From contig CAMYKY010000010.1 of assembly GCA_947259165.1 (NCBI GenBank), positions 34,433-98,432 on the forward strand: 64,000 nucleotides of DNA, given 5' to 3'. The stretch is from an uncultured Acidobacteriota bacterium (GTDB taxonomy: Bacteria; Acidobacteriota; Vicinamibacteria; Marinacidobacterales; SMYC01). Made by a program: the position numbers and the translations under genes. Under the pieces are notes generated by a model that did not search any database, was not told where the DNA came from, and saw nothing but the letters and a program-made list of their open reading frames with translations. Below, one piece after another: positions 6,609 to 49,524 of the stretch (its first letter is position 1; the number at the start of each line of letters is the position of its first letter).

Positions 6609-7334
6609 CTACGCCGTGCGAGCGAGTACGGCGATGGGTCTCGGGTGCAGGTGCGCCGTGAGTCGCGAACGGAGTGTCCGAACTGCCTTGGTGTGGATCT
6701 GAGAAACGCGCGACTCGTTGACACCGAGAACGTCTCCGATTTCCTTCATCGTCAGCTCTTCGTGATAGTACAGAGTCATTACCAGCCGCTCCCGCTCGCC
6801 CAGCCTCTCGACGGCGCTCGCGAGCAGGGCAATGAGCTCCCGCCGCTCGAGCAAATCATGAGGGTCGCTACCCTTGGGATCGCGCACGAAGACGTCGATG
6901 TCATCGACCCCTTCGACACGTTCGGCCCTCACCTCCGCACGGCGGACTTCCTCGACGATTTTGCGAAGCCGGGTCGTGGACAGCTCGAGCTCGGTGGCAA
7001 GCTCCTCGTCGCTCGGTGCTCGTCCCAGGAGACACTCGAGTCTCGCCGACGCTGCGTCGAGCTCACGACGTCGACGACGCACCGAGCGCGGTAACCAGTC
7101 GAGAGCACGGAGACTATCGAGAATCGAGCCACGGATCCGAAGCTCGGCGTACGTCCAAAAACGCACGCCTTTGCTGACATCGTACTTGGCGGCAGCGTCG
7201 AGCAGGCCGAGAAAACCGGCCTGGGTCAAGTCGCAAAGCTCCACCTGCGACGGCAGCCGGCTCGCGACATGAAGTGCCACCCGCCGAACCAGCGGCAAGT
7301 ACTCCTGAACCATGGCCTGTTTGCTTGCGTTCAT
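6609..7334 (-). CDS. fliA: RNA polymerase sigma factor, FliA/WhiG (sigma-28) family
   Basis: Region 2 (LPLVRRVALHVASRL...DLTQAGFLGLLDAAAKYD...FWTYAELRIRGSILDSLRALDWLPRSVRRR), region 3 and region 4 HTH (LTMKEIGDVLGVNESRVSQIHTKAVRTLR) are all recognisable. The start is taken at MNASKQ, inside the longer track ORF. Confidence 0.8.
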   Translation of the reverse strand: MNASKQAMVQEYLPLVRRVALHVASRLPSQVELCDLTQAGFLGLLDAAAKYDVSKGVRFWTYAELRIRGSILDSLRALDWLPRSVRRRRRELDAASARLECLLGRAPSDEELATELELSTTRLRKIVEEVRRAEVRAERVEGVDDIDVFVRDPKGSDPHDLLERRELIALLASAVERLGERERLVMTLYYHEELTMKEIGDVLGVNESRVSQIHTKAVRTLRSRLTAHLHPRPIAVLARTA

Positions 7335-7522
7335 CGTGACGTATTTTCCGGGGTGTTTGCGGCGCGCAGTGGTGTGTTGCAAGAAAACTGCCAGCAACCA
7401 AAGCTCATGAAATGAGCTACTTGGACCTGGGGATGGGGGCAAGTTCCCCTAGGGGCGTGTTAAAACTTTAAACCCGCTGAGAATCCAGCACACCGATCCC
7501 CACTGCTGAAACGGTGACCTTT

Positions 7523-7611
7523 CGTGCCCGTGTCCGCGTGCGTGCCCGTGCCCGATAAATCTTGGTCACGGGTTTTCCTGTGAGTGCTTTTCTTGGTCGG
7601 GCACGGGCACG
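7523..7611. repeat. hexamer-TIR element, copy A: (GTGCCC/GTGTCC)n left arm and (GGGCAC)2 right arm
   Basis: Left arm cgtgcccgtgtccgcgtgcgtgcccgtgcccg, a 44-nt AT-richer core, then right arm cgggcacgggcacg. It sits between the symporter stop and the fliA start. Confidence 0.7.
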
Positions 7612-7620
7612 AAAAGCCAG

Positions 7621-8841
7621 CTACGGCGGCGTCAATTCATGCTCAGCAGCCCCGACCCAGGTCGCGTTCACCAGCTGGCCTACTAGATTCGTCGACGAGC
7701 GCAGCATGTCCAGGGGACGTTCGACACCGAGCACGAGCGCCGCGCCTTCGATCGGAAGTCCTAGGGCGGCGAGAAGGATCGTCAAATTGACGAAGCTCGC
7801 CGCCGGAACGGGCGCTACCGCGAGCGAAGACAGCATCGCGGTCACGATCAAGCTCGTCAAGCCCTGGGCTCCCAATGAGGCGCCGTAGACTTGCGCAATG
7901 AACAACACCGAGATGGCTTGATAGATAGCACTGCCGTCCCGGCCAATCGCCGCACCCAAAGGCAGCACGAAGCTCGCGACTCGTGACGAGAGCCCCATAC
8001 TCTTTTCCATAGCCGCCATCGAGACGGGAAGGGCTGCGGCGGTCGAACAGGTCGCAAAGGTGATCAGAAGCGGCGGCTTCGCCGCGTCGAGGAAACGACC
8101 CACACTCTGCCGCGCCACCACCCGCAGCATCACTCCGTACACGACAACGATATGAACAACGAGCGCGAGCACGACGACACCGGCGTAAGCAGAAAGACTC
8201 CAGAGAATCGAGAGGCCCGATCGACCGACGACCGCAGCCATCAAACCGAAGACACCGAACGGTGCGAGCTGCAAGATCCAACCGGTGATCTTGACGAACA
8301 TCTCCGCAACGCTTCGCGAGAGATCAACGACAGGCTTGCGCTTATCAGCAGGGAGCGCACTCGCGGCAAGACCGACGAGAATCGAGACGAGCAAAACTTG
8401 AACGACGTTGCCCTCGACCGCCGCTCGGATTGGATTATCGGGAACGATACCAACGAGCGTGTCGACGAGAGACTCTCGCGGCGCATCCGGATCCACGTCT
8501 GGAACTTCCTGGCCTTCGAGAAGGCTCGCACGCGCAGCAGCCGACATCGTCGTTCCTGGGCTCAACAACGACCCGATCGAAATCCCGATGATCAGAGCGA
8601 GGAACAGACTGACGAGAATGAATCCGAACGCCCGCAGCCCCATCCGCCCCAACGCTGCCCGTCCTGGTAATCCGGCTATCGCCACGACGAGAGACGCCGC
8701 AACCAAAGGAACGATCACCATCCGAATGAGCTTGATGAACAGCGTCCCCAAGGGCTCGAGGATGGAGGCGGCTTCGCCGAAATACGCACCGACGAGGACA
8801 CCGGCAACGAGCCCAATCGCGACGCGGTTGTGAATCTTCAA
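7621..8841 (-). CDS. dicarboxylate/amino acid:cation (Na+/H+) symporter, DAACS family (GltP-like)
   Basis: Eight or more TM segments with characteristic DAACS motifs (PLVAASLVVAIAGL, VVDLSRSVAEMF, AIGRDGSAIYQAISVLFIAQVYG, MLRSSTNLVGQ). The start is placed at TTG 8841 (LKIHNRVAIG); the track ORF runs to ATG 8991. Confidence 0.8.
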   Translation of the reverse strand: MKIHNRVAIGLVAGVLVGAYFGEAASILEPLGTLFIKLIRMVIVPLVAASLVVAIAGLPGRAALGRMGLRAFGFILVSLFLALIIGISIGSLLSPGTTMSAAARASLLEGQEVPDVDPDAPRESLVDTLVGIVPDNPIRAAVEGNVVQVLLVSILVGLAASALPADKRKPVVDLSRSVAEMFVKITGWILQLAPFGVFGLMAAVVGRSGLSILWSLSAYAGVVVLALVVHIVVVYGVMLRVVARQSVGRFLDAAKPPLLITFATCSTAAALPVSMAAMEKSMGLSSRVASFVLPLGAAIGRDGSAIYQAISVLFIAQVYGASLGAQGLTSLIVTAMLSSLAVAPVPAASFVNLTILLAALGLPIEGAALVLGVERPLDMLRSSTNLVGQLVNATWVGAAEHELTPP

Positions 8842-9133
8842 ACTGGCCGGAGCGTAGCATGATCGGCATTTCGCCGTGAGGGCAGCTTCGACGGAGCCCG
8901 GACGATATCTCACTCCTTCGAAGAGGTCCGATGCGGACGATTCAGCATTCGGTTTCACCACGGAGTCACGGAGAGCACGACGCGAGGACAACCCTTTTCT
9001 CTATGATCCGCCGAGACTCCGCGGTGAAATCGGCGGGCCATTGGGGAGGCGAAATGCGCACTCCACGGGGTCAAGCAAACCGTTCTTTGCTTGGATCTTG
9101 CGCGAGTGCGGAGAAGTTGTTATCACCACTAAT

Positions 9134-12825: not shown

Positions 12826-13016
12826 GGAGTCTCATTCGGCTATCGGCTATCGGCATCCGGTTGATGCTCGGTTGACGAGAGTCTTTTTTCCACACACCTG
12901 AGCTCGATAAACAATCTTGGCCTTCCCGAAGGCTTGCGCGCCGCGTCGAGGCGCAGTCGCTGGGGCCGGCAAATAAATCCGGACCGAGCAGTAACCGAAT
13001 GCCGATAGCCGAATGA
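12826..13016. mobile_element. MITE-like element with ~25-bp heptamer-repeat terminal inverted repeats (family 2, copy 1)
   Basis: Left TIR cattcggctatcggctatcggcatccggtt. Right TIR aaccgaatgccgatagccgaatgag, near-perfect reverse complement. The ~130-nt core (ctcgataaacaatc...gcgcgccgcgtcgaggcgcagtcg) is homologous to the copy at 29707..29873. It lies between the metH stop and a convergent lipoprotein gene. Confidence 0.75.
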
Positions 13017-13035
13017 GACTGAGCTGAAAAGGTTG

Positions 13036-14421: not shown

Positions 14422-14832
14422 ATGAAGAGAATGACACTATGTCTAGGTTTGGTGGGGCTTCTGGCCATGGCGTGGTCGATATCGGCACAGGAGGAGGCCA
14501 CCACGGTTCAATCCGGCGTGTTTTCCGAAGAACAAGCGGGACGCGGTGAGCAGCTCTTCGGCGAAGCCTGCCTGGTCTGCCACCAGCCCGAAGAGTTCGC
14601 CACCGGTGGCTACATGGACGGATGGAGCGGCATGAGCGTGAACGATTTTGTGGAGTTCGTGCGCTCGACCATGCCGGAGGACAACCCCGGTCGTCTCAAA
14701 CGCGAAGAATACATCGACATCATCGCGTTCGTCTTTCAGCAAAACGGGCTTCCGGCGGGAGAGACCGAAATGGAGCGAGCGGGGCTCAAGGACATTCAGA
14801 TCGAAGGCCCCTTCGGCGAGTCCGCCCAGTAG
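14422..14832 (+). CDS. c-type cytochrome (class I, mono-heme)
   Basis: Signal peptide MKRMTLCLGLVGLLAMAWSISAQ and one CxxCH heme site (CLVCHQ). Confidence 0.8.
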   Translation: MKRMTLCLGLVGLLAMAWSISAQEEATTVQSGVFSEEQAGRGEQLFGEACLVCHQPEEFATGGYMDGWSGMSVNDFVEFVRSTMPEDNPGRLKREEYIDIIAFVFQQNGLPAGETEMERAGLKDIQIEGPFGESAQ

Positions 14833-15089
14833 ATTCGTCCGACACGTGGGCTCGAGCCGCACCCAGGCTCGAGCCAATGTGCAACTACCGATTGAGAAAC
14901 GCTCCAGCACAGCTCTTCGGGGCCTCCGACCGAGACCTTGACAACCTCGTTGCCTTCGCCCTAATCTCGCCCCGAAACGAGTGCGGTCGGGGTCCGGCGG
15001 GATGTTTCAAACTCAACGCCGTATTTACCTGCAAGCTTACGGACTGATCCGTGGCGCACGGCGCGAGCCTGGCGTCATTGGAGGGAGGT

Positions 15090-15562: not shown

Positions 15563-15592
15563 CCCCTCTCCCCCCGAATGGGGGGAGAGGCC
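15563..15592. terminator. perfect palindrome CCTCTCCCCCC-GAAT-GGGGGGAGAGG downstream of the BON/LysM gene
   Basis: 11-bp stem with a 4-nt loop, 30 nt after the stop. No T-tract follows on the plus strand. It belongs to the recurring CCTCTCCCCC/GGGGGAGAGG palindrome family (see also 15826..15891 and 60184..60229). Confidence 0.5.
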
Positions 15593-15825
15593 TGGGTGAG
15601 GGGGATGTACACGCGTTGCACCGTGCACCTGCACCCGTTGTACCCGTGCCCCCGATCTCGGACCCCATTGGGCAGAGCCCCAGACTGAGCAGCTGTGGTT
15701 CGCGATTCGAGTTCTTCGAATGCAGGCGTTGTGCCAGCGCGGATAGAGTCGATTTCTTTGGTTTTCAGCGTCATCACTCGCCTTCGAGCAACGCCCCCTA
15801 ACCCGATGGCGCTGCGCGCCATCGA

Positions 15826-15891
15826 CCTCTCCCCCCTTTTGGGGGAGAGATTAATCAAAATCAACAACCTCTCCCCCAAAAGGCGGAGAGG
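15826..15891 (-). terminator. tandem CCTCTCCCCC-N4-GGGGGAGAGG hairpins; glpK rho-independent terminator candidate
   Basis: Two hairpins (cctctcccccc-tttt-gggggagag and cctctccccc-aaaa-ggcggagagg) separated by attaatcaaaatcaacaa. On the minus strand the distal hairpin is followed by TTGTTGATTTTGATTAAT, a U-rich tract, 50-115 nt after the glpK stop. Confidence 0.55.
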
Positions 15892-15940
15892 GCCTCTTGG
15901 TTAGCCTCTTCCGTCACAGTGCTCACCGACACGCCACACC

Positions 15941-18786: not shown

Positions 18787-18974
18787 AGTTTTGAACAGCC
18801 TCGGGTCCGAGACGACCCCCTCGGCCCGACTAGCCTCCCCTGAGGTCTCGTCCTTCTCACCGAGACTTCCGGGGAGGCCCTCCCTCCTGTAGCGGGCGTC
18901 GTCTCCTCGAGGCGCCCGCGCTTGTTTCGGACAACTCCTTCGGCTTCATGTTCCATCGTGCACGGCGATGCAGT

Positions 18975-19090
18975 CAAAGGCAAAGAGAGACGGGGATAGG
19001 AGGGGATGTGGGGATAAGACAAGCTCTGTGCAACGCCCCATCTCCAAACTTCGGATCATGTCCATCCCCTAATCCCCTTTGCCTTTGACG
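18975..19090. repeat. long imperfect inverted repeat upstream of the sigma-54 activator gene
   Basis: gtcaaaggcaaagagagacggggataggaggggatg ... catccatcccctaatcccctttgcctttgac. The arms are ~33 nt with a ~45-nt spacer, about 90 nt upstream of the ATG at 19179. Confidence 0.5.
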
Positions 19091-19178
19091 ACCTCCCAGT
19101 CAGCCGTGACGGCGGGCCGTTGGCGACGGAAATGAGAGTCTCGTATACTAAGTCTTTGAAAACGAGTCACATCGTGTC

Positions 19179-24217: not shown

Positions 24218-24317
24218 GCATTTCTCCAAAGAAAGATGGCGTTTCGAGGCGGGTTGAAGCCCAAAATTCCGTCCTATCAGAGAGGGATTAGACGAGCACG
24301 ACTCCTAGCGTCTGCTG

Positions 24318-26246
24318 GTGCTCTCACGAAAAAGATCGTGCCCGTGCCCGCGTGCGTGCCCGTGCCCGAAAAGCGAGCCTTCCGGATTTAGTCGGGGACG
24401 GGGACGGGGACGGGAACGGGAACGGGAACGGGAACGGGAACGGGGCACCCGAACCACGGACATTCTTCGCGGAGTGTTTGGGTATCGCACTTTTCGCGGC
24501 CAACAGGAGTCGGTCATCAACCGCATCGTCTCCGGTGGGAACGCTCTGGTGTTGATGCCCACCGGGGGCGGCAAAAGTCTGTGCTATCAGATCCCAGCGA
24601 TTGCCCGCGACGGGGTCGGAATCATCATTTCGCCGCTCATCGCGCTGATGCAGGATCAGGTGGCGGCTCTCACGGAGGCTGGAGTCCGGGCGGCGTTCGT
24701 GAATTCCAGCCTCGAGCGCCATGTGGCAAGTCGCGTCGAGGACGACATGGTCGCGGGTCGATACGATCTGGTGTACGTCGCGCCGGAGCGCCTCGCCACC
24801 GACTCGTTCGTCAAACGATTGGACGATACCCGCTTGGCGTTGTTCGCCATCGATGAAGCGCACTGCGTGAGCCAGTGGGGCCACGACTTTCGGCCCGAGT
24901 ACCGCAAGCTCGACTTGTTGCACCAACGCTATCCCAACGTCCCGAGAATCGCACTCACCGCAACCGCTGACGCCCCAACTCGGGGTGAGATTCTGACGCA
25001 CCTCGCGTTGTCCGACTCCGACGTGTTCGTCGCCGGCTTCGATCGTCCCAACTTGCGCTACGAGGTCGTACCCAAAGCGAACGGCCGCCAACAACTGTTT
25101 CGATTCATCCGGAGCCGCCATGAGGGGGAGAGTGGCATCGTCTACTGCATGAGTCGCAAGAAGGTCGAGCAAACCACGGAAGTGCTGATAGGCGAGGGGG
25201 TGCCGGCGCTCCCCTACCACGCCGGCTTGGACAAGTCAGTGCGCCAGTCCCATCAAAGGCGGTTCAAGGACGAGCCCGGGATCGTCATCGTCGCCACCAT
25301 CGCCTTCGGTATGGGAATCGACAAGCCGGATGTACGATTCGTCGCCCATCTCGACCTGCCCAAGAGCCTCGAGGCTTACTATCAGGAGACCGGTCGGGCC
25401 GGACGCGACGGGCTGCCCTCGGACGCATGGATGACCTACGGCTATGGAGACGCCGTGTTTATCCGACAAATGGTCGAGCGTTCCGACGCGCCTGCGGAGC
25501 GCAAGCGTCTCGAACAGCTCAAGTTGAACTCATTGCTCGGCTACTGCGAGAGCGCGGAATGTCGACGCGCAATCTTGCTTCGTTACTTCGGTGAAGAGCA
25601 CGCGGGAACGTGCGGCAACTGCGATACCTGCACAAATCCCGTCGAATCGTTCGATGGCACCACGCAAGCCCGCAAAGCGCTATCGAACGTCTACCGCACC
25701 GGCCAACGCTTTGGTGCTGCGTATCTTGCCGACATCCTCGTGGGCGCGTCCGACCCGCGGATCGAGCGCAATGGACACGCGCGCATCTCGACGTTCGGCA
25801 TTGGCGACGAGTTCGACCGGAACGGGTGGATGAGCGTGTACCGCCAGCTCGTAGCAGCCGCACTCCTCTTAGTAGAGCCGGAGCACGGAGGCCTGTCGCT
25901 CTCCGATCGAGCGGCGCCTCTGCTGAAAGGCGACGATACGTTCCGCTTGCGTCGCGACCCGACGCCGGTCAAGGGCAAGTCGCAACCACGCACCGGTTCA
26001 ACCGTCGATACAGTGCTGAGCTCATCCGCAGACCAGAAGCTGTTCGAAGCGCTTCGACAAAAACGCCTCGAGCTCGCGAAATCACAGCGCGTTCCGCCCT
26101 ACGTGATTTTCCACGATCGCACGCTCCTCGAGATGGCCCGCGTCCGTCCCCGCTCGCTGTCCGCCCTAGCCGACATCACCGGCGTGGGTGCCACGAAGCT
26201 GGACAAGTACGGGGATACGTTTCTTGAGTTGCTGAAGGATGAGTGA
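24318..26246 (+). CDS. recQ: ATP-dependent DNA helicase RecQ
   Basis: DEAH helicase motifs ([30 protein letters not shown]). Helicase-C and the Zn-binding RQC ([20 protein letters not shown]). C-terminal HRDC domain. The only in-frame start upstream of the conserved FGYRTFRG block is GTG 24318, so the repeat element is part of the ORF or the start is non-canonical. Confidence 0.9.
24337..24447. repeat. hexamer-TIR element, copy B, lying inside the 5' end of the recQ reading frame
   Basis: Left arm cgtgcccgtgcccgcgtgcgtgcccgtgcccg. 24-nt spacer. Right arm (cggggac)3(cgggaac)4cggggcac. The recQ frame reads it as [11 protein letters not shown]...[16 protein letters not shown]. Confidence 0.75.
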
Positions 26247-26275
26247 ATCCGACACCGAACTCCCAAGCTGAGATC

Positions 26276-26416
26276 GTTCCCGTTCCCGTTCCCGATTGAT
26301 CTTGCTCCTGGCCACTTTTCGGTTCGAAACCGAGCTATTTCGAGCCGCAGGCGGCGACCGAACGAGTTCGATTCAGCATACGTCGGGAACGGGAACGGGG
26401 ACGGGAACGGGGCACC
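26276..26416. repeat. hexamer-TIR element, copy C: (GTTCCC)3 ... (GGGAAC)n
   Basis: Left gttcccgttcccgttcccg. A 90-nt core containing ggttcgaaaccgag. Right cgggaacgggaacggggacgggaacggggcac. It lies 30 nt after the recQ stop and 26 nt before the selenoprotein-candidate ATG. Confidence 0.8.
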
Positions 26417-26441
26417 TTCATTCATGCTATAGATCTCAGCC

Positions 26442-29706: not shown

Positions 29707-29873
29707 TGTATACGGCATTCGGGCGAAAGCTCGTTTGAAGAGCGCTTGCCCGCACACCGGAGCCTCGATAAACGATCGTAGAAGGTGTGCGCGCAGCATC
29801 GAGACGCAGTCGTGTTGACTCGATGAGGAATCCGAAACCAGACTCGAACCGTATGCCGTATGCCGTTTTTACC
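29707..29873. mobile_element. MITE-like element, family 2 copy 2, between the vWA gene stop and the ATPase start
   Basis: Right end cgaaccgtatgccgtatgccg (heptamer CCGTATG x2) abuts the vWA stop. Left end tatacggcattcggg is a partial inverse. The core ctcgataaacgatc...gcgcgcagcatcgagacgcagtcg is homologous to 12826..13016. Confidence 0.7.
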
Positions 29874-32462: not shown

Positions 32463-32561
32463 AGGCTTTTCACCACGCAGGCACGCAGCTCACGGAGGGT
32501 GCACGGAGAAATTCGTGTTTCCCTCCGCGGTCTCCGTGCCTCCGTGGTGAAAAAACGGAGT

Positions 32562-37051: not shown

Positions 37052-37145
37052 TCCAATGTTCCACCACGGGGAGAATCACCGAGGTGAGTCCGTCCGTTCT
37101 CCGGATCCCCTCCGTGCGTCCGTCGCAACCCGTATGCCGTATGCC
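37052..37145. repeat. hairpin cluster plus solo heptamer motif (CCGTATG)2CCG downstream of the gdh stop
   Basis: ccacggggagaatcaccgaggtgagtccgtccgttctccggatcccctccgtg forms nested inverted repeats. cccgtatgccgtatgccgtgag matches the family-2 TIR. It is a likely terminator region for the minus-strand gdh gene. Confidence 0.5.
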
Positions 37146-37154
37146 GTGAGCCGC

Positions 37155-40100
37155 CTAAAGCCCGATGCTTTTTCTCAGGTCAGCAACGGCACCCGCGGGG
37201 TCGTTGTATTCGCCATTCAAGGCGTCGTGGGTGGCTGACTCGAGGACCCGCTCGAGCTCGAGTAGCGCGCGCTGCGTTTCGTCGGCTGAGCGGCCCCGCC
37301 CGGCTATCTCGCGCCGAAGCTCGGCCACCCCCGCTTTTCGCGAGCACGTGAGATAAGCCCTAATCACGGTGCCGATATCGGTACCCGTCGTGCTCGTCAT
37401 CCTTTTGAAGAAATCGACGCCGGCATGATTCACGACGTGATTCACCGCTACCGTGGCGATGATCTCGCGCCGCAGTGGGTGCTCGACGAAGTAGTCGGAG
37501 AACTCATGAAGGCGGCCCGGGAAATAGTCGTGAAGCAGGGGCGCGCCTTCCTCGCTGTCAGGAAAATCGGTCTCGAGAACGCCAGAGAAGGCCCAAATCT
37601 TGACGTAGCCGAGAAGCAACGCCAATAAAGGCCGCATCAAGCCGCGCGCTTGTCCCGTCGAGTCTGACCCACCCTCGGCAGATTGCAAAGCCGCGGGCTC
37701 GCGCAACTCGCTCCACGGCGGGACATTGTCGTCAGCGCGGTTCATGACGCCTTCGTGAAGGAGCTCTCCGAGAAGATCCAGGAAGTCCTCGTAGCGCTCG
37801 GCGCTCCGCCGCCCGTCGAGGGTCAATGCGAGCGCCTGCGCCGCGTTGTCCTCGAGAACGAGGGAGGCGACGTCCTCCGTCATATCCAGAAAGATGCGAT
37901 CACGTTCCTTCCTGTTCGAAAGCGCGCCCTGTTTCACGAGCACGTCCATCAGTATCTTGATGTTCACCTCATGGTCGGACATGTCGACGCCACCCGAATT
38001 GTCCACGGCATCGGTGTTGACGATGCCGCCTTTAGCCCAGTATTCGAGGCGAGCCTTCTGCGTCAACCCTAGATTGCCCCCTTCGCCGATCACTTTTGCT
38101 CGAACCTCAACGGCATTGACGCGGACTCGATCGTTCGCGCGATCGCCGGCGTGAAGATGTTCCTCGCTGGTCGCCTTGAGGTATGTTCCAATCCCGCCGT
38201 TGTAGAGCAGGTCGACAGGTGCCTTGAGAACGCACCGGATCATCTCCTCACCACTGACCCGATCGGCCTCGATCTGCAACACGGCCTTGATTTCGGGTGT
38301 GACCGCGATCGCCTTCGCCGAGCGATCGAAGATGCCCCCGCCTTCGCTGATCACCGATGAGTCGTAGTCCCGCCAGCTCGAGCGCGAGAGCCGAAAGAGC
38401 CGCTCGCGTTCTTCGAAGCTCTTCTCGGGGTCAGGATTCGGATCGACGAAGATGTGGACATGATTGAAGGCCGCCACGAGCTTGATCGCCCGAGAGCTGA
38501 GCATGCCGTTGCCGAAAACGTCCCCGTTCATGTCGCCAATACCGACGACGGTGAAGAGATCCTTGGCCACGTCCGTGCCGAGGTTGTGGAAGTGGTGTTT
38601 GATGCACTCCCACGCGCCACGAGCAGTGATGCCTACTTTCTTGTGGTCATAACCCACACTGCCGCCGGACGCGAACGCGTCACCAAGCCAGAAACCGTAA
38701 TGCTTGGCAACGGAGTTGGCCGTATCGGAAAGGTGTGCCGTACCCTTGTCGGCAGCCACGACGAGGTAGGGGTCATCGCCATCGTGGCGAACGACCTCGG
38801 GTGGATGGCCTACTTTGCCATCCACCATGTTGTCGGTAACGTCGAGAAGCCCAGAGATGAATTCCCGATAGCGGTCGACGAGGTAGCCGTCGAGCGCGGG
38901 GTGAGGCGGCAGTTCCCCTTTTAGGACGAAGCCACCCTTCGAGCCCACGGGCACGATGATCGAGTTCTTGACCATCTGCGTCTTCTGAAGATCGAGCACT
39001 TCGGTACGGAAGTCATCGTGCCGATCGCTCCACCGAATACCACCTCGCGCAACACGACCGCCCCGAAGATGAATTCCCTCGAGCTTGCGGGAGCGAACAT
39101 AGATCTCGAACATCGGGCTCGGCGACGGCATCCCTTCGACCTTGGCGCTTTCTACTTTCATGACGAACACAGGTCGTTCGGGTCGCTGGTAGAAGTTCGT
39201 GCGCGTGGTCGACGCGATAAGGTTCGAAAACGCTCGCAACACTTCGTCGTCCACGAGGCTTCCCACATCATCCAACGCTCGCTGCAAATCAATCTCCGCC
39301 TGACTCTCGATTTCCTCACGCTCGCCGTCGAAAGCGGGGTCGAAGCGCGCCTCGAAGGCTCTAAAGAGTGCTCGCGCCGCTGACGCGTTGGAGAGCAAAA
39401 CGCCGTTAACGGTCTCGAAATTGTAGTGTGGTCGAATTTGCTGCAGGTGCGCGCGAAGCGTACGCAATACCTCCACCTGTCTCCATTCGAGCTCGGCCGT
39501 CAATATCAACGCATTGAGAGAGCCGTCGGTCGCTCGTTTTTCATCAAGGGCGCGAAGCGCGTGCGCGAGCCGGCCGGTACCAGCTAACAGCACGGCGATG
39601 CGCTCTGCGGTGTCTTCGATTTCGTAGCGGTGCATGTGCGCGGTGCGTCGCGACGGAAGCCGGATGGGAATGTGAAGCTCGTCAGTAACGCCGAGTCCCA
39701 GGTTTCGAAGCGTCGTCAGGGTCTCGATGAAGTTCAGGGGTTTGGCGGAGTAGGTCTTGATCGTCGCGTGCTCGGGCGATCGCGGGACGACAGCGATCTG
39801 AAGACGAGCATCGAGTTGTTCCAAGTGCCCGACGTCAAAGGGAACTTCTTCGGCCGGCGTCGCTTCCCGATAGATCCCGCTTCTCGTGTCGTAGGTGATC
39901 CAACGGCCAAACAACAGCCGCCCCTCTCGTTCTCCGAACGCTTCCGTCAACGCTCGAGAAACGACGTCCTTCCACGTCGTGATGGTCTCTTCGGTGACCC
40001 TGAGTGCCACGTCCTCGTCGATCGGATGCTCCAACCGATCGAGATCGAAATAGAAAACCAGAACCTCTACGGCGCCCGCGTTCTCCGAAGCGGTGAAGCC

Positions 40101-41471
40101 GACGGGGCCGAAGCGCTCGGTGAACGCGCGCTCCAGCGAATTCGCACATTCGTGAGAGTAGCGCAGCTTCGAGAACGCGAGATAAAGTACTGCGTAACCG
40201 GGGCCGAGCCGGTGGTGCACGGCGATCTCGTCATCTCCGGTGATGTGGACGATGCGATCGAAAAACGGTTTCAACTCCGTCGCCGGAGCATAGAAGAGCT
40301 CGCGGCGCGGAAAGCGGTTGAACAACGCACGCACCTGTCGAAACGCGTGCGACATCGACGCGGCACCGCTCCTGTCGATGAGCCAACGCCGTTTTTCCCG
40401 CAACAGTGGGACGTCCGCCGCGCGTTGCGCGAACGAGCCTTGCGAGAATCGTCCGAGCAGAAACGTCGCCTGCTCGAGTTTGCCGTTCCCTCCCCAGTGG
40501 CGGATGACAATGTCGTCGATCGGTTCGAGATGGTAGATCGCCGACGCGTTAGAGCAGTAGTCGATCTCGATAATGCGCTCGTCGTCCGGTGCCGGAACCA
40601 ACTGGCTTTCGACCTCTTCGACGAGCCCGGGAAAAACGACCGGCAACAGGGCTGGATCGCGAAACGCGCCCAGCGCGCTCTCGGCGATTCGGTCTCCTGT
40701 GCCGTCCGGCGCAATACGGTAGCTCATGAGCCCCATGAGGATGAAATTTTCGTCCGTGAGCCATTTCAAGAACGCCCGCGCCGGCTCGAGATCCTCGGCC
40801 TTGTCGCTGCGGGATCTCATATCTCCCGTGATTTCCGAGACTGTATTCGTCATCTCTTCGAAATCCTCGAGCGCGAGGAACAGGCATTTCAGCACCGAGA
40901 AAATCTCGTGCTGGACGCGCCGCAGCCGCTCTTTCGATTCGATATGCTCGATCCGGAAGCGGCACAAAAGCTCCTTGTCGCCCTCGGCGTGGGCATCGCC
41001 AATCCACTCGACCCGCTCCCACTGCCGCCGGACGGTAAGAATCGGATGGAAGGCCGAGAACACACGCAAGCCAGCCTTGCGAAAATAGTTCATCAGGCTG
41101 TCGAAGATGAAGGGAGCGTCGTGCGTATGGGTCTCGACAATGGTCGTATCCATTGGGATCGTTTTACCGCCCACCGAAGGAAGCCACTCCTCCTCGACCG
41201 AGTGGCGCGCAACGACATGAAGGCCCGGCAGGCCCCGATAAAGCTGCGGCGGCGGCGGGAGTTCTTTGACAAAGAACCGAAAATTGTCCGCGAGCCGGTT
41301 AGCCAGATTCGGCGCGGAGACACCTTCGATCATCCACTCGGGGAGCCCGCCATAGACAACTTTGGCGAAGGACTCCACGAGCTCCCAATTCTCGTCCGCT
41401 TTGATTTTTTTGAGATGCTCGAGGACTTCGTCGAGCTTGCGCTGTTTGTCTTCCGAGCTAACGCTTGGCAT
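37155..41471 (-). CDS. gdhB: NAD-specific glutamate dehydrogenase, large (~160 kDa) bacterial type (GdhB)
   Basis: A 1438-aa ORF whose catalytic core follows the large-GDH pattern (GGIRWSDRHDDFRTEVLDLQKTQMVKNSIIVPVGSKGGFV...MSDHEVNIKILMD) with long N- and C-terminal regulatory regions. Confidence 0.85.
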   Translation of the reverse strand: MPSVSSEDKQRKLDEVLEHLKKIKADENWELVESFAKVVYGGLPEWMIEGVSAPNLANRLADNFRFFVKELPPPPQLYRGLPGLHVVARHSVEEEWLPSVGGKTIPMDTTIVETHTHDAPFIFDSLMNYFRKAGLRVFSAFHPILTVRRQWERVEWIGDAHAEGDKELLCRFRIEHIESKERLRRVQHEIFSVLKCLFLALEDFEEMTNTVSEITGDMRSRSDKAEDLEPARAFLKWLTDENFILMGLMSYRIAPDGTGDRIAESALGAFRDPALLPVVFPGLVEEVESQLVPAPDDERIIEIDYCSNASAIYHLEPIDDIVIRHWGGNGKLEQATFLLGRFSQGSFAQRAADVPLLREKRRWLIDRSGAASMSHAFRQVRALFNRFPRRELFYAPATELKPFFDRIVHITGDDEIAVHHRLGPGYAVLYLAFSKLRYSHECANSLERAFTERFGPVGFTASENAGAVEVLVFYFDLDRLEHPIDEDVALRVTEETITTWKDVVSRALTEAFGEREGRLLFGRWITYDTRSGIYREATPAEEVPFDVGHLEQLDARLQIAVVPRSPEHATIKTYSAKPLNFIETLTTLRNLGLGVTDELHIPIRLPSRRTAHMHRYEIEDTAERIAVLLAGTGRLAHALRALDEKRATDGSLNALILTAELEWRQVEVLRTLRAHLQQIRPHYNFETVNGVLLSNASAARALFRAFEARFDPAFDGEREEIESQAEIDLQRALDDVGSLVDDEVLRAFSNLIASTTRTNFYQRPERPVFVMKVESAKVEGMPSPSPMFEIYVRSRKLEGIHLRGGRVARGGIRWSDRHDDFRTEVLDLQKTQMVKNSIIVPVGSKGGFVLKGELPPHPALDGYLVDRYREFISGLLDVTDNMVDGKVGHPPEVVRHDGDDPYLVVAADKGTAHLSDTANSVAKHYGFWLGDAFASGGSVGYDHKKVGITARGAWECIKHHFHNLGTDVAKDLFTVVGIGDMNGDVFGNGMLSSRAIKLVAAFNHVHIFVDPNPDPEKSFEERERLFRLSRSSWRDYDSSVISEGGGIFDRSAKAIAVTPEIKAVLQIEADRVSGEEMIRCVLKAPVDLLYNGGIGTYLKATSEEHLHAGDRANDRVRVNAVEVRAKVIGEGGNLGLTQKARLEYWAKGGIVNTDAVDNSGGVDMSDHEVNIKILMDVLVKQGALSNRKERDRIFLDMTEDVASLVLEDNAAQALALTLDGRRSAERYEDFLDLLGELLHEGVMNRADDNVPPWSELREPAALQSAEGGSDSTGQARGLMRPLLALLLGYVKIWAFSGVLETDFPDSEEGAPLLHDYFPGRLHEFSDYFVEHPLRREIIATVAVNHVVNHAGVDFFKRMTSTTGTDIGTVIRAYLTCSRKAGVAELRREIAGRGRSADETQRALLELERVLESATHDALNGEYNDPAGAVADLRKSIGL

Positions 41472-41660
41472 GGTGTGACTGGTATCTCCGGATCGAAACT
41501 CGGGTGCAATCCCTTAGTGTAGACCGGTCGCGGGCACGATGCCACGACTAGCGAGACTTTCGACAATGCCCAGGTCAGCTCCACGACCTTCTAACGTTAA
41601 TTTTGAACCGAAGGTTGGACCTGTCCGGCTCGGTTGTGCTCCCGCCGAAGAGAGTTCTTC

Positions 41661-41791
41661 GTTCCCGTTCCCGTTCCCGTTCTCGACTAAGAATGTCCAG
41701 ACCCGTCGGCGAGCGGAGCTCGCCGCGATCAGTCCGTGGTCACGTGAACATCTTTAATCGGGAACGGGAACGGGAACGGGAACGGGAAACG
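41661..41791. repeat. hexamer-TIR element, copy D: (GTTCCC)3-4 ... (GGGAAC)5
   Basis: gttcccgttcccgttcccgttctcg, then a 73-nt core with internal hairpin cggcgagcggagctcgccg, then cgggaacgggaacgggaacgggaacgggaaacg. It is intergenic, upstream of the divergent gdh start. Confidence 0.8.
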
Positions 41792-41961: not shown

Positions 41962-42759
41962 TCAGTTGTTGGCGTGTTGTATGTGGACCGCTCGGTACGG
42001 CGAAACGAGGTCGACCACGACACCCTCGATCCGCGCCTCGGCGCCGACGGCCGGAGCGCTCAAACCCGGCGATAACGCGAAGCACAAAGGGACGCTTCCG
42101 CGAACGAGAAGACTCATTTCGCACCCGGTTGCCGGTGTCACAACCATCCCCGTCGCATGAATCTCATCGTCGATACGTAACTCAGAGGCAACGAGTCCGC
42201 CACCACCGTCCACACCCCGAGCTCGTAGCGGCAGCCCCAGATGGTCTCCCAGCAACGAGGACAACTCTGACGGCGGCAAGCGTTCGACGAGTGCAGGCTC
42301 GTTGTCGACTCGAGTTTCGTTGGTGACGATCACGAGCGTGTCTTTGACTCTTACCGCCACGACACAATCGAGCTCGGGCGGGCAGCTTTCGATTCCAAAA
42401 AAGAGCCCGCGCACCCGAGCATCGTCCCCATCGGAGCCGCTCGATCCCCTGTTGCTGTCATCGTCGTTGCTGTCATCGTCGTCGCTGTCATCGTCGTTGC
42501 TGTCATCGTCGTCGCTGTCATCGTCGTCGCTGTCATCGTCGTCGCCGTCATCATCCGGCGAATCGCCGCTAGCATCGTCGCCATCGCTATGCGCTCGCGA
42601 GCTCGCCAGTGCTACACCGGCGGCATCACCACTCACGATCGAGGGCGCAGTCGCGCTGACGCCGTCGTCACCGCACCCCACGAAAACGAGCGCAGCGAAC
42701 ACCGCGGCAACTACCATCGCAATCCATTTCATTTGCCGTGTCATTTCCATTTCGGACAT
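41962..42759 (-). CDS. lipoprotein with poly-acidic (DDDDSDDDDSN)n repeat region
   Basis: Lipobox LVFVGCG. About 45 residues of Asp/Ser repeats are encoded by 15-bp tandem DNA repeats (gttgctgtcatcgtc, ~7 copies, 42447..42555). A C-terminal globular domain follows. Confidence 0.6.
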   Translation of the reverse strand: MSEMEMTRQMKWIAMVVAAVFAALVFVGCGDDGVSATAPSIVSGDAAGVALASSRAHSDGDDASGDSPDDDGDDDDSDDDDSDDDDSNDDDSDDDDSNDDDSNRGSSGSDGDDARVRGLFFGIESCPPELDCVVAVRVKDTLVIVTNETRVDNEPALVERLPPSELSSLLGDHLGLPLRARGVDGGGGLVASELRIDDEIHATGMVVTPATGCEMSLLVRGSVPLCFALSPGLSAPAVGAEARIEGVVVDLVSPYRAVHIQHANN

Positions 42760-43020
42760 GTCTCCTCGGGTCCGGTACGGAGCCCAAACCGACACCCGTA
42801 TGAACCCAGGCTACGGACGCCGGCGACGCACTAGGTCAATCCCTCTATGCGGCAGAGTCATTGTGCGTCGACCACGCCGAACGCGCGATGATCCGCGGCA
42901 CGCTTTTGGGGTGAGGTTGCTAACGCCCGGCCGGTGAGGAGCGTCACGGACACGAACGAAAAGGCCGAGGCAGTCTTGTTAAACTAGCGGCGTGACGCAC
43001 CGCGATCTCTAGACAATCTT

Positions 43021-49069: not shown

Positions 49070-49128
49070 CGAGCACACCACGAAGACACGGAGCCGCAGC
49101 GCGGAAAGTCCGCAACCCACTGCTTTTT

Positions 49129-49281
49129 CAACGCAAAGGCGCAAAGTCGCGGAGACGCAAAGGTCGTCGAGTATGAGCTTCTGCAGACGATGATTTGACA
49201 CTTGTGAAAGAGACATGCGCCGGAACACGTCCGCCGCAAGGCGCTCACTTTGCGCCTTTGCGCCGTTGCGCCTTTGCGTTG
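49129..49281. mobile_element. MITE-like element with 16-bp perfect TIR built from GCGCAAAG repeats (family 3)
   Basis: Left arm caacgcaaaggcgcaaagtcgcggagacgcaaaggtcg. Right arm cactttgcgcctttgcgccgttgcgcctttgcgttg. The terminal 16 nt are exact reverse complements and the octamer GCGCAAAG is repeated 3x per arm. It overlaps the 5' end of a truncated gene. Confidence 0.7.
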
Positions 49282-49524
49282 AGTTCTTCTTTTTGTAGCG
49301 AGTTCTTCGATGTCGGTAGTGCGGAGGGAGCACGGAGACAAGTCTTTGAATCGATCGCCCTGAACCTCACGATGTACCTTCAGCACGCGATGGTGCACGC
49401 GGTACCTCTTTTGTGGCGTCCTCATCGCGTCCATCACGCCGATCTCGACGTCGATGTCACCACCGGAGCGCGGTTTCACGTTATCGAAGTCGTCCTCTAC
49501 GCAATAACCCGCCGCGCGGCCTAG
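49195..49524 (+). pseudogene. C-terminal fragment of a fatty-acid hydroxylase/sterol desaturase-family protein
   Basis: Only the last ~70 aa of the family, including the His box HRVHHADLDVD, are present. The reading frame begins inside the 49129..49281 element. Confidence 0.45.

Follow-up and report, generated by a model that had tools for sequence, protein, structure and literature searches.

Hexamer-armed hairpin elements beside recQ and other genes of an uncultured Acidobacteriota bacterium share their arms with four-helix-bundle gene cassettes

Introduction

Here we examine four small intergenic elements, designated A to D, in a 64,000-nucleotide stretch of DNA (the window) from an uncultured Acidobacteriota bacterium (GenBank assembly GCA_947259165.1, contig CAMYKY010000010.1, positions 34,433 to 98,432 of the forward strand), two of which, B and C, adjoin the two ends of the helicase gene recQ. 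Their arms are tandem arrays of GNNCCC hexamers on the left and GGGNNC hexamers on the right, and the same arms bracket genes for four-helix-bundle proteins, which are also known as 23S rRNA intervening sequence (IVS) proteins, in many unrelated metagenomic contigs. We propose that A to D are probably gene-less members of a family of hairpin-bounded cassettes whose complete form carries a four-helix-bundle gene.

Few uncharacterised small proteins are as common in bacterial genomes as the four-helix-bundle "IVS proteins", and the origin and spread of rRNA intervening sequences is a question that dates from the early 1990s. The proteins, which are covered by the families PF05635 and TIGR02436, are related to Avd, a nucleic-acid-binding protein of diversity-generating retroelements (DGRs). 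The interest of the elements comes from the cassette architecture and not from the recQ neighbourhood: the link connects four-helix-bundle proteins, rRNA intervening sequences and the G-rich repeats of Xanthomonas and Nostoc, and helps to explain a puzzling class of bacterial repeats. At the level of single genes, the elements rearrange their neighbours, as illustrated by the start of recQ in the window and by a BON-domain gene in a related genome, and their arrays mislead gene callers because they are free of stop codons in all frames.

Four hairpin-type elements in the window

The positions, arms and surroundings of the four elements are listed in Table 1. An initial annotation, made from the sequence alone, had reported four elements at essentially these coordinates, and the sequence, the period-6 arrays found by Tandem Repeats Finder (TRF) and a pattern search all agree with it. 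The two-unit pattern CGTBCCCGTBCCCG matches 21 times in the window, compared with 0.02 matches expected from 100 shuffles, and every one of the 21 lies inside A to D, on the plus strand in the left arms and on the minus strand in the right arms. The order is thus always 5'-(GNNCCC)n...(GGGNNC)n-3', an arrangement that is identical on either strand and distinct from the opposite order. The annotated three to seven tandem units per arm do not describe A, in which two plus two perfect units on the left are split by degenerate units and only two are present on the right.

Table 1. The four hexamer-armed elements and recQ, with positions in the window
Feature	Position	Strand	Type	Left arm	Core	Right arm	Period-6 arrays (TRF)	Surroundings or extent
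Element A	7523..7611		GTGCCC type	7523-7555, CGTGCCCGTGTCCGCGTGCGTGCCCGTGCCCGA	7556-7596	7597-7611, TCGGGCACGGGCACG	7523-7554	10 nt past the stop of the SDF (sodium:dicarboxylate) symporter gene 7621-8991(-); 80 nt before the sigma-70 gene 6609-7442(-)
Element B	24337..24449		hybrid	24337-24369, GTGCCC type	24370-24392	24393-24446, (GGGGAC)3(GGGAAC)5, terminating GGGGCACC as in the right arm of C	24337-24368; 24393-24444	120 nt past the stop of a hybrid histidine kinase gene
Element C	26275..26418		GTTCCC type	26275-26295, (CGTTCC)3CGA	87 nt, structured, 3' of the left arm	26383-26418, TCGGGAACGGGAACGGGGACGGGAACGGGGCACC	26275-26294; 26384-26411	29 nt past the recQ stop (26246 to 26275); 23 nt before the next ATG (26442)
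Element D	41660..41788		GTTCCC type	outer part (CGTTCC)4		outer part (GGGAAC)5	41660-41682; 41759-41788	flanked by ORF 41962-42795(-) and, on the other side, the NAD-glutamate dehydrogenase gene 37155-41471(-); 173 nt past a stop codon
recQ	24318..26246	+						longest open reading frame (ORF), from GTG 24318; 642 aa; in frame through B

The elements measure 89-144 nt, have terminal inverted repeats and no coding capacity, and all lie in spacers between co-directional genes, 10-173 nt behind a stop codon. The arms of A, C and D are 15-40 nt long and 86-100% complementary; in D, a 40-nt inverted repeat (41660-41699 / 41745-41784) shows 88% complementarity. The suggestion that each copy folds into a long stem was borne out for these three, whose predicted folds were far more stable than those of dinucleotide shuffles (z of -5.3, -5.1 and -10.6 for A, C and D, respectively, with 0 of 200 shuffles equal), but not for B, which fails the stem test (z of -0.9; 36 of 200 shuffles equally good) because GTGCCC units on the left cannot pair fully with GGGGAC/GGGAAC units on the right, leaving a mismatch in each unit. 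The right arms of B, C and D each contain at least four G3 tracts at 3-nt spacing. Between the arms, the cores have only about 10-15 nt in common, directly beside the arms (CCCGAYTAA... / ...TCGGG). No match to any Rfam family, rRNA included, was obtained at gathering thresholds in the whole window, and ARAGORN found no tRNA there. Taken together with the comparison of related genomes described below, these data support the view that the four elements form one dispersed, intergenic, hairpin-type family that is present or absent between related genomes.

The same arms bracket four-helix-bundle genes

Searching GTDB with one genome for each species, we obtained at least 117 stretches with (CGTTCC)3CG. 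Among the matches listed, 16 of 125 arrays of at least three GTTCCC units have an inverted partner within 260 nt on the side that gives a hairpin, compared with one on the wrong side; these hairpin-type copies come from metagenome-assembled genomes (MAGs) labelled Planctomycetota, Holophagae, Thermoanaerobaculia, Sulfomarinibacteraceae, Longimicrobiales and "delta proteobacterium". Most of the arrays listed are solitary and lie in long stop-free frames in actinomycetes and others, and these are probably coding repeats. At one locus (L043), two arrays 1.2 kb apart surround a 124-codon ORF that matches PF05635, the 23S rRNA-intervening sequence protein family, with an E value of 1.9e-22; the C-terminal fragment of a DDE_Tnp_1_4 transposase also lies between these arrays, the one instance seen. 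A compact version is found in an Acidobacteriota MAG (L016), where (CCCGTT)5, about 45 nt, a 67%-identical gene and (GGGAAC)4 overlapping the gene end follow one another.

The association was then quantified in a metagenome scan with an alignment of four cassette proteins, which yielded 80 loci with genes for 23S rRNA-intervening sequence proteins (IVPs). At each locus, 220 nt of flank were taken on either side, and the upstream flank was aligned to the reverse complement of the downstream flank. An inverted-repeat score of at least 30 was reached at 37 of the 69 usable loci, compared with 3 of 69 in a direct-orientation control. In terms of hexamers, at least two GNNCCC units upstream and at least two GGGNNC units downstream were present at 30 of 67 loci, and the reverse configuration at none of the 67. 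The majority dinucleotide at the two free positions is complementary between the arms in 23 of the 30 loci (TG in 9, TT in 6, AG in 5, CT in 2 and TC in 1); hence, the two free bases covary in a way that preserves pairing. The arms contain 3-6 units, with 4 or 5 being the commonest numbers.

A common plan can be drawn from these loci. The left arm, (GNNCCC)3-6, is followed by a leader of 5-50 nt that contains a Shine-Dalgarno sequence, next by an ORF of roughly 120 codons and then by the right arm, (GGGNNC)3-6. The right arm begins no more than about 45 nt beyond the point where the protein match ends, and in some loci it overlaps the ORF. In predicted minimum-energy folds of whole cassettes, the terminal arms pair with each other across about 450 nt. 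The encoded proteins score 74-79 bits against TIGR02436, "four helix bundle protein" (cut-off 24), and match the PDB entry 2gsc (XCC0516), which contains five chains.

The arms of a cassette from an AT-rich organism (L133), GTGCCCGTGCCCGCGTGCGTGCCCGTGCCCGA, include an irregular GCGTGC unit, are identical over 32 nt to the left arm of B and differ by 1 nt from the left arm of A; the subtype (GTGCCC)2-GCGTGC-(GTGCCC)2-GA seen in A and B therefore also brackets four-helix-bundle genes. Because the irregular unit is common to the window and to L133, descent is indicated rather than convergence.

Two further features of individual cassettes were recorded. In the predicted folds of L133 (92-552) and L125 (420-870), the stem extends beyond the hexamer arms, so that the nucleotides that immediately follow the stop codon are paired with the Shine-Dalgarno region (AAGAGGAG), a pairing that would mask translation initiation in the folded RNA. 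At another locus, about 70 nt separate the right arm of a four-helix-bundle cassette from the start of a group II intron that lies 3' of it (L146, 545-768; RF02005, 185 bits); insertion behind terminator-like hairpins is known for some bacterial group II introns.

Gene-less copies and their turnover in other genomes

Copies that have lost most of the gene are found in other genomes. Two copies in one Planctomycetota MAG (L050 and L106) still carry the gene's seven initial codons (MNFDHER) and its final dozen (VVSMLTR...), joined by an internal deletion that both have in common; they are 83% identical throughout, and their flanks are unrelated. A common deletion in unrelated surroundings is what a non-autonomous derivative shows once it has been copied to a new site. 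In a nhmmer search with a DNA profile of the cassettes, these two copies were recovered at 1e-10 (L050) and 6e-8 (L106), followed by L002_2 (6e-4) and L204 site 2 (0.015). L002_2 is a second GTGCCC-type hairpin (14760-14870) of L002, a relative of the window organism, and its loop contains TTCGACCACGAGAAGCTCG, which encodes FDHEKL, the N-terminal motif of the protein. In L204, the element upstream of recQ is of the GAGCCC type and has a loop, ATGAACTCGACCCCAAGAAGCTCGACGTCTGCC, that resembles a decayed MNFDHEKLDVY; at the same site, L002 has GTGCCC units with one GAGCCC unit among them.

The comparison of L204 with L002 is informative about turnover, since their DNA is 98-99% identical and they differ in hairpins at four or five intergenic sites. 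At one of these, a BON-domain gene is intact in L002 (935-1171), whereas in L204 (1315-1421) an octamer-type arm occupies the place of its 3'-terminal 237 nt. These differences indicate fast turnover, in which the unit type changes in both arms together and adjacent DNA is lost, and the loss in the BON-domain gene parallels the loss of the recQ start beside B. A different family of perfect hairpins (AAAAAAGGGGACAGGTA... / ...TACCTGTCCCCTTTTTT) was also noticed, at L204 4523-4593 and L003 16358-16426; the corresponding spacers hold different hairpins in L002.

The recQ start and elements B and C

The initial annotation placed B inside the 5' end of recQ and C about 30 nt after its stop. The second distance agrees with the 29 nt observed, and the first depends on which start codon is chosen. 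For the longest ORF, from GTG 24318, B is internal. The deposited protein (P0001; 100% identical, 590 aa, with RecQ Pfam domains) starts at GTG ~24474, downstream of B, so that B lies upstream of that start. Conserved N-terminal codons (TRTTDILRG) are found at 24447-24473, between the two candidates, and GTG 24318 is the only canonical start that retains them, at the cost of reading the whole of B in frame and adding about 43 residues; RecQ homologues begin without such a B-like N-terminal extension. B may now be translated as an N-terminal extension of RecQ. The right arm of B abuts recQ codon 4, and the homology of the window recQ (ACC CGA ACC ACG GAC ATT CTT) to the N-terminus of its relative in L202 extends to the right edge of B, which implies that B replaced the ancestral start codon of recQ. 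B itself looks like a rearranged hybrid with a GTGCCC-type left arm and a GTTCCC-type right arm, and a deletion in which the 5' region of recQ was lost as well probably gave rise to it. The right arms of B and C form near-identical direct repeats on the two sides of recQ, each ending GGGAACGGGGCACC. The best named RecQ matches, in Vicinamibacteria and Phycisphaerae, and the gene content (TonB/CarboxypepD_reg, and GWxTD in relatives) hint at Acidobacteriota or Planctomycetota and no further.

Related genomes do not preserve this bracket. In the closest relative, L202 (RecQ 86% identical), no element lies upstream or downstream, and recQ begins TTG AGC GAA ACG CGA GCC ACC GAG ATT CTT, 88 nt after the kinase gene. 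In L002, L203 and L204 (RecQ 81%), synteny with the window extends between the BON-domain gene and the glutamate dehydrogenase gene; a hexamer-armed element lies directly behind the upstream gene, and the downstream spacer of 42 nt contains no element; C is accordingly absent from this orthologous spacer, as it is from L202. In L003 (RecQ 76%), the inverted-repeat scan found none upstream, and an octamer-armed hairpin of a different family lies downstream. The L002 upstream element was considered as an orthologue of B and rejected: in L002 a conserved spacer motif, AAAACTCGTCTCTTATAGACA, is located 3' of the element, whereas in the window the counterpart of this motif (24265-24285) is 5' of B. 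Being on opposite sides of the motif, the two insertions are independent of each other. Moreover, four elements distributed over about 45 spacers would bracket some gene with a chance of about 0.25, from 1-C(42,4)/C(45,4). As the bracket is not conserved in relatives, we treat it as incidental to recQ; the position of B and C around the gene looks like a coincidence with no demonstrated function.

Comparison with described systems

In the 23S rRNA IVSs of Leptospira, Coxiella and Brucella, terminal inverted repeats enclose an S23p ORF, and cleavage of the stem (28 bp in Coxiella) by RNase III has been shown experimentally for the IVSs of Salmonella, Leptospira and Coxiella; a mobile origin of IVSs was proposed long ago and never explained (PMC4990558). 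The complete relatives of A to D resemble them in having a PF05635/TIGR02436 ORF of about 120 codons inside terminal inverted repeats with a stem of 20-30 bp or more, and the short ORF-less IVSs of Salmonella are likewise extended stem-loops only. They differ in that A to D lie between protein-coding genes rather than in helix 9, 25 or 45 of 23S rRNA, in that the stems described here are built of tandem GNNCCC hexamers, and in that the window copies have no ORF.

The closest described analogue of the window elements is the inverted pairs of GGGAATC heptamer arrays in Xanthomonas. About 185 such arrays occur per genome, with 70-75 inverted pairs and a preference for four units (Rehm et al., 2015; PMC4692102). 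They lie between aligned ORFs at a mean of 28 nt behind the upstream ORF, are transcribed, form G-quadruplexes (G4) in vitro and have no known function; the G-rich heptamers GGGAATC and GGGGAYT are described for Xanthomonas and Nostoc with no mention of four-helix-bundle or IVS proteins (PMC4692102). Both kinds of repeat consist of tandem G3 units, about four per array, often in inverted pairs, are intergenic and close behind a stop between co-directional genes, and vary between related species. The unit has 6 nt here and 7 in Xanthomonas, the C-rich arm comes first here and the G-rich arm first in Xanthomonas, and the Xanthomonas heptamer stems have a mismatch at every seventh position.

The gene-array association is found in Xanthomonas as well. 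The XCC0516 family, recovered from the PDB alignment, is represented in X. campestris and X. sacchari by a gene between accB and accC, which is bracketed upstream by GGGAATC GGGAGTG GAGAATC GGGAATC and downstream by CATTCCC CATTCTC GACTCCC TATTCCC, the inverted complement except at every seventh base. The two arms pair in the predicted fold, and the GTG start lies inside the left arm, consistent with the residue numbering of the PDB entry. The association thus extends to a second phylum, where the units differ in length and the arms come in the opposite order. One architecture ties rRNA intervening sequences, four-helix-bundle proteins and the G-rich repeats together: a small gene between inverted arrays of G3/C3 units with covarying bases, accompanied by many gene-less copies. 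The elements are best classed with the IVS or four-helix-bundle cassettes, as a variant that has hexamer arms and mostly no gene, and regarded as the counterpart of the Xanthomonas heptamer pairs. In the initial annotation they had not been recognised as any described repeat family, which remains accurate with respect to Rfam but not with respect to the cassettes, whose arms they share, or to the Xanthomonas analogue. In a literature search that was incomplete, so that an earlier description is possible, no publication was found that reports the arm sequences from bacteria or describes a connection between tandem-repeat arms and four-helix-bundle genes.

Similarities to MITEs (miniature inverted-repeat transposable elements) such as Correia/NEMIS and RUP are also apparent, as these are small, non-coding, dispersed in intergenic spacers, bounded by inverted ends, co-transcribed with their neighbours and derived from a larger element by internal deletion, as in L050 and L106. 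The present elements differ in that no target-site duplication and no known transposase partner were found, and in that their ends are tandem arrays of variable length that covary between the arms. A more distant parallel is provided by the Foldback (FB) elements of Drosophila, which have long terminal inverted repeats made of tandem short sub-repeats, with unequal and variable arms and often little between them; they belong to another domain of life and another scale, and the parallel is an analogy only, with no evidence of relatedness.

Origin of the elements and alternative explanations

We regard it as fairly probable that A to D descend from cassettes that carried a four-helix-bundle gene, and empty hairpins of the cassette kind are the best explanation of A, C and D. 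On this account the family would be selfish and horizontally spreading, inserting into intergenic spacers close behind stop codons. An element would have no promoter of its own and would be transcribed by read-through from the upstream gene, and its perfect stem of 20-40 bp would, by analogy with rRNA IVSs, probably be a substrate of RNase III. Since RNase III would separate the element from the flanking RNA, insertion would do little harm to the flanking RNAs. Slippage, and copying from one arm or one copy to another, would account for changes in the arrays themselves. A bolder version, which we hold to be rather unlikely, would see in the hexamer and heptamer arrays the cis sites of an unrecognised bacterial mobile or RNA-processing element that has no conventional transposase and whose only gene encodes a pentameric four-helix-bundle protein; each arm, with its 4-5 tandem units, would be read by the protein ring, and gene-less hairpins, A, C and D among them, would be serviced in trans. 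If true, this would bring together in one system the rRNA intervening sequences, the G-rich tandem repeats of Xanthomonas and Nostoc, and TIGR02436, a very large family.

Several observations weigh against a derivation from cassettes. The main gap in the argument is that the four cores of the window contain no gene remnant detectable by jackhmmer on six-frame segments or by nhmmer, so that the derivation rests on the identity of the arms and on the copies in relatives; ATGTTCACGTGACCACGG in D was considered as a remnant and set aside, being suggestive only and giving no significant profile match. About half of the sampled IVP genes have no bracketing inverted repeat in their 220-nt flanks, and none of 20 cassette loci lies within rRNA. 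The reverse history is possible, in which the hairpins came first and the gene settled later in their loops. A comparison of the filled site of C (...GCTGAGAT / element / TTCATTCATG...) with the empty site in L002 (AGATTAATATTGGATTCG), the one pair compared, revealed no target-site duplication, a weak test because the spacer is diverged. No transposase is associated with the family, the partners that share its ends encoding the four-helix-bundle protein, and none was found among 25 candidate ORFs of the window scanned against Pfam; without a duplication or a transposase, mobility is deduced from distribution and not from mechanism. Finally, the arm mismatches on the sense strand of the gene comprise 30 G.U and 24 A.C pairs, with no excess of G.U and hence nothing that would favour selection for RNA pairing over a process acting on DNA; regeneration of symmetric arms at the DNA level is equally possible. 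A search of IMG/VR for a phage vehicle gave no match for the GTGCCC-type arm or the GTTCCC hairpin.

Alternatively, the elements might be host-selected, immobile structures, either hairpins that stabilise or terminate 3' ends or G-quadruplex/i-motif switches, which recur by slippage and are merely tolerated by four-helix-bundle genes. The uniform position of the four elements behind stop codons of co-directional genes, the fit of (GGGAAC)≥4 to the G3N3 quadruplex motif, the group II intron that lies just behind one cassette arm as others do behind terminator-like hairpins, and the Xanthomonas arrays (PMC4692102), which are transcribed, similarly placed, inclined to four units and able to form G4 in vitro, would all be expected of such structures. 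The identical irregular arms of the window and L133, organisms that are unrelated and of different base composition, point instead to descent; in addition, gene-less copies contain decayed gene remnants, no U-tract follows the stems, and orthologous spacers in close relatives lack both the element and any visible replacement, so that we give this explanation only a small chance. Ordinary MITEs, that is, deletion derivatives of a DDE-type insertion sequence moved by cut-and-paste through a transposase that binds the hexamer arrays, appear distinctly improbable. The small size, non-coding nature, terminal inverted repeats and presence or absence between relatives would suit them, as would the propagation of an internally deleted copy (L050/L106) and the DDE_Tnp_1_4 fragment between the L043 arrays; that fragment, however, is C-terminal and was seen once, the recurrent full-length partner encodes a four-helix-bundle protein and not a transposase, C shows no target-site duplication, and arms whose sequence and unit number vary freely while remaining complementary, and change between genomes that are 98-99% identical, are unlike protein-binding transposon ends.

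Two further proposals go back to the initial annotation, which had envisaged one MITE- or REP-like family, a family of structured small RNAs, for which no Rfam match was obtained, or recombination hot-spots placed next to a recombination helicase. A role specific to recQ, whether as G4 helicase substrates, as the ends of a movable recQ module, as regulatory sites or simply as low-complexity coding repeats of RecQ, could draw on the direct repeats ending GGGAACGGGGCACC that flank the gene and on the in-frame reading of B from GTG 24318 with TRTTDILRG upstream of the annotated start, but is very hard to sustain: the arrangement is not conserved in L202, L002, L203, L204 or L003, A and D adjoin unrelated genes, about 25% of random placements bracket some gene, and RecQ homologues start without the extension. 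Least probable of all are repetitive extragenic palindromic (REP) elements or REPINs mobilised by a REP-associated tyrosine transposase (RAYT, a Y1 HUH enzyme). Dispersed intergenic palindromes with a variable loop do recall REP doublets; A to D nevertheless have no GTAG or CGTC head, their arms are tandem 6-mers of 20-50 nt and not imperfect palindromes of 20-40 nt, and the associated gene belongs to PF05635 and does not encode a RAYT. Of the single MITE- or REP-like family, what survives is a dispersed, intergenic, hairpin-type family that is present or absent between relatives, without a REP head, transposase partner or target-site duplication. The annotation had allowed that arrays lacking core similarity, or carried as coding sequence by relatives, need not be one family; the arm identity, irregular unit included, and the remnants in relatives show common descent, so that this objection does not hold in the sense that matters.

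Other repeats and hairpins in the window and its relatives

Besides A to D, the window contains further intergenic foldbacks whose arms are tandem arrays of short units. An octamer foldback with arms (CGCAAAGG)n / (CCTTTGCG)n and GCGCCAAG variants lies at 49128-49282; copies are present in the same kinds of genomes, at L003 11880-12092 (directly behind recQ), L070 ~2460-2590, L125 ~1020-1170 and L016 ~455, and no gene was found inside any copy. Three long intergenic hairpins, each single-copy in the window, are found between convergent genes at 12828-13020, 18962-19100 and 32467-32553. One of them, a 200-nt foldback with (TCGGCTA)n heptamer arms (12828-13020), follows metH; another has (CAAAGG)2 arms, and another is a 33-bp stem directly 3' of a PilZ gene.

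The spacer between the BON-domain gene and the FGGY gene contains a small palindrome, CCTCTCCCCC-loop-GGGGGAGAGG, three times (15564-15591, 15826-15850 and 15868-15892), and the same spacer measures only 31 nt in L002. At 15630-15655 it also contains CCCGTTGTACCCGTGCCCCCGA, which resembles a decayed GTGCCC-type left arm. A 15-nt tandem repeat of 6.6 copies at 42454-42552 is coding, corresponding to an Asp/Ser-rich low-complexity stretch of ORF 41962-42795(-), and is unrelated to the hairpin elements. Finally, a micro-array, (CCGTATG)2.6, occurs twice, at 29849-29866 and 37130-37147, each copy being a few bases 3' of a minus-strand stop, that of the 29869-31467 gene and that of the glutamate dehydrogenase gene (37155-41471), respectively.

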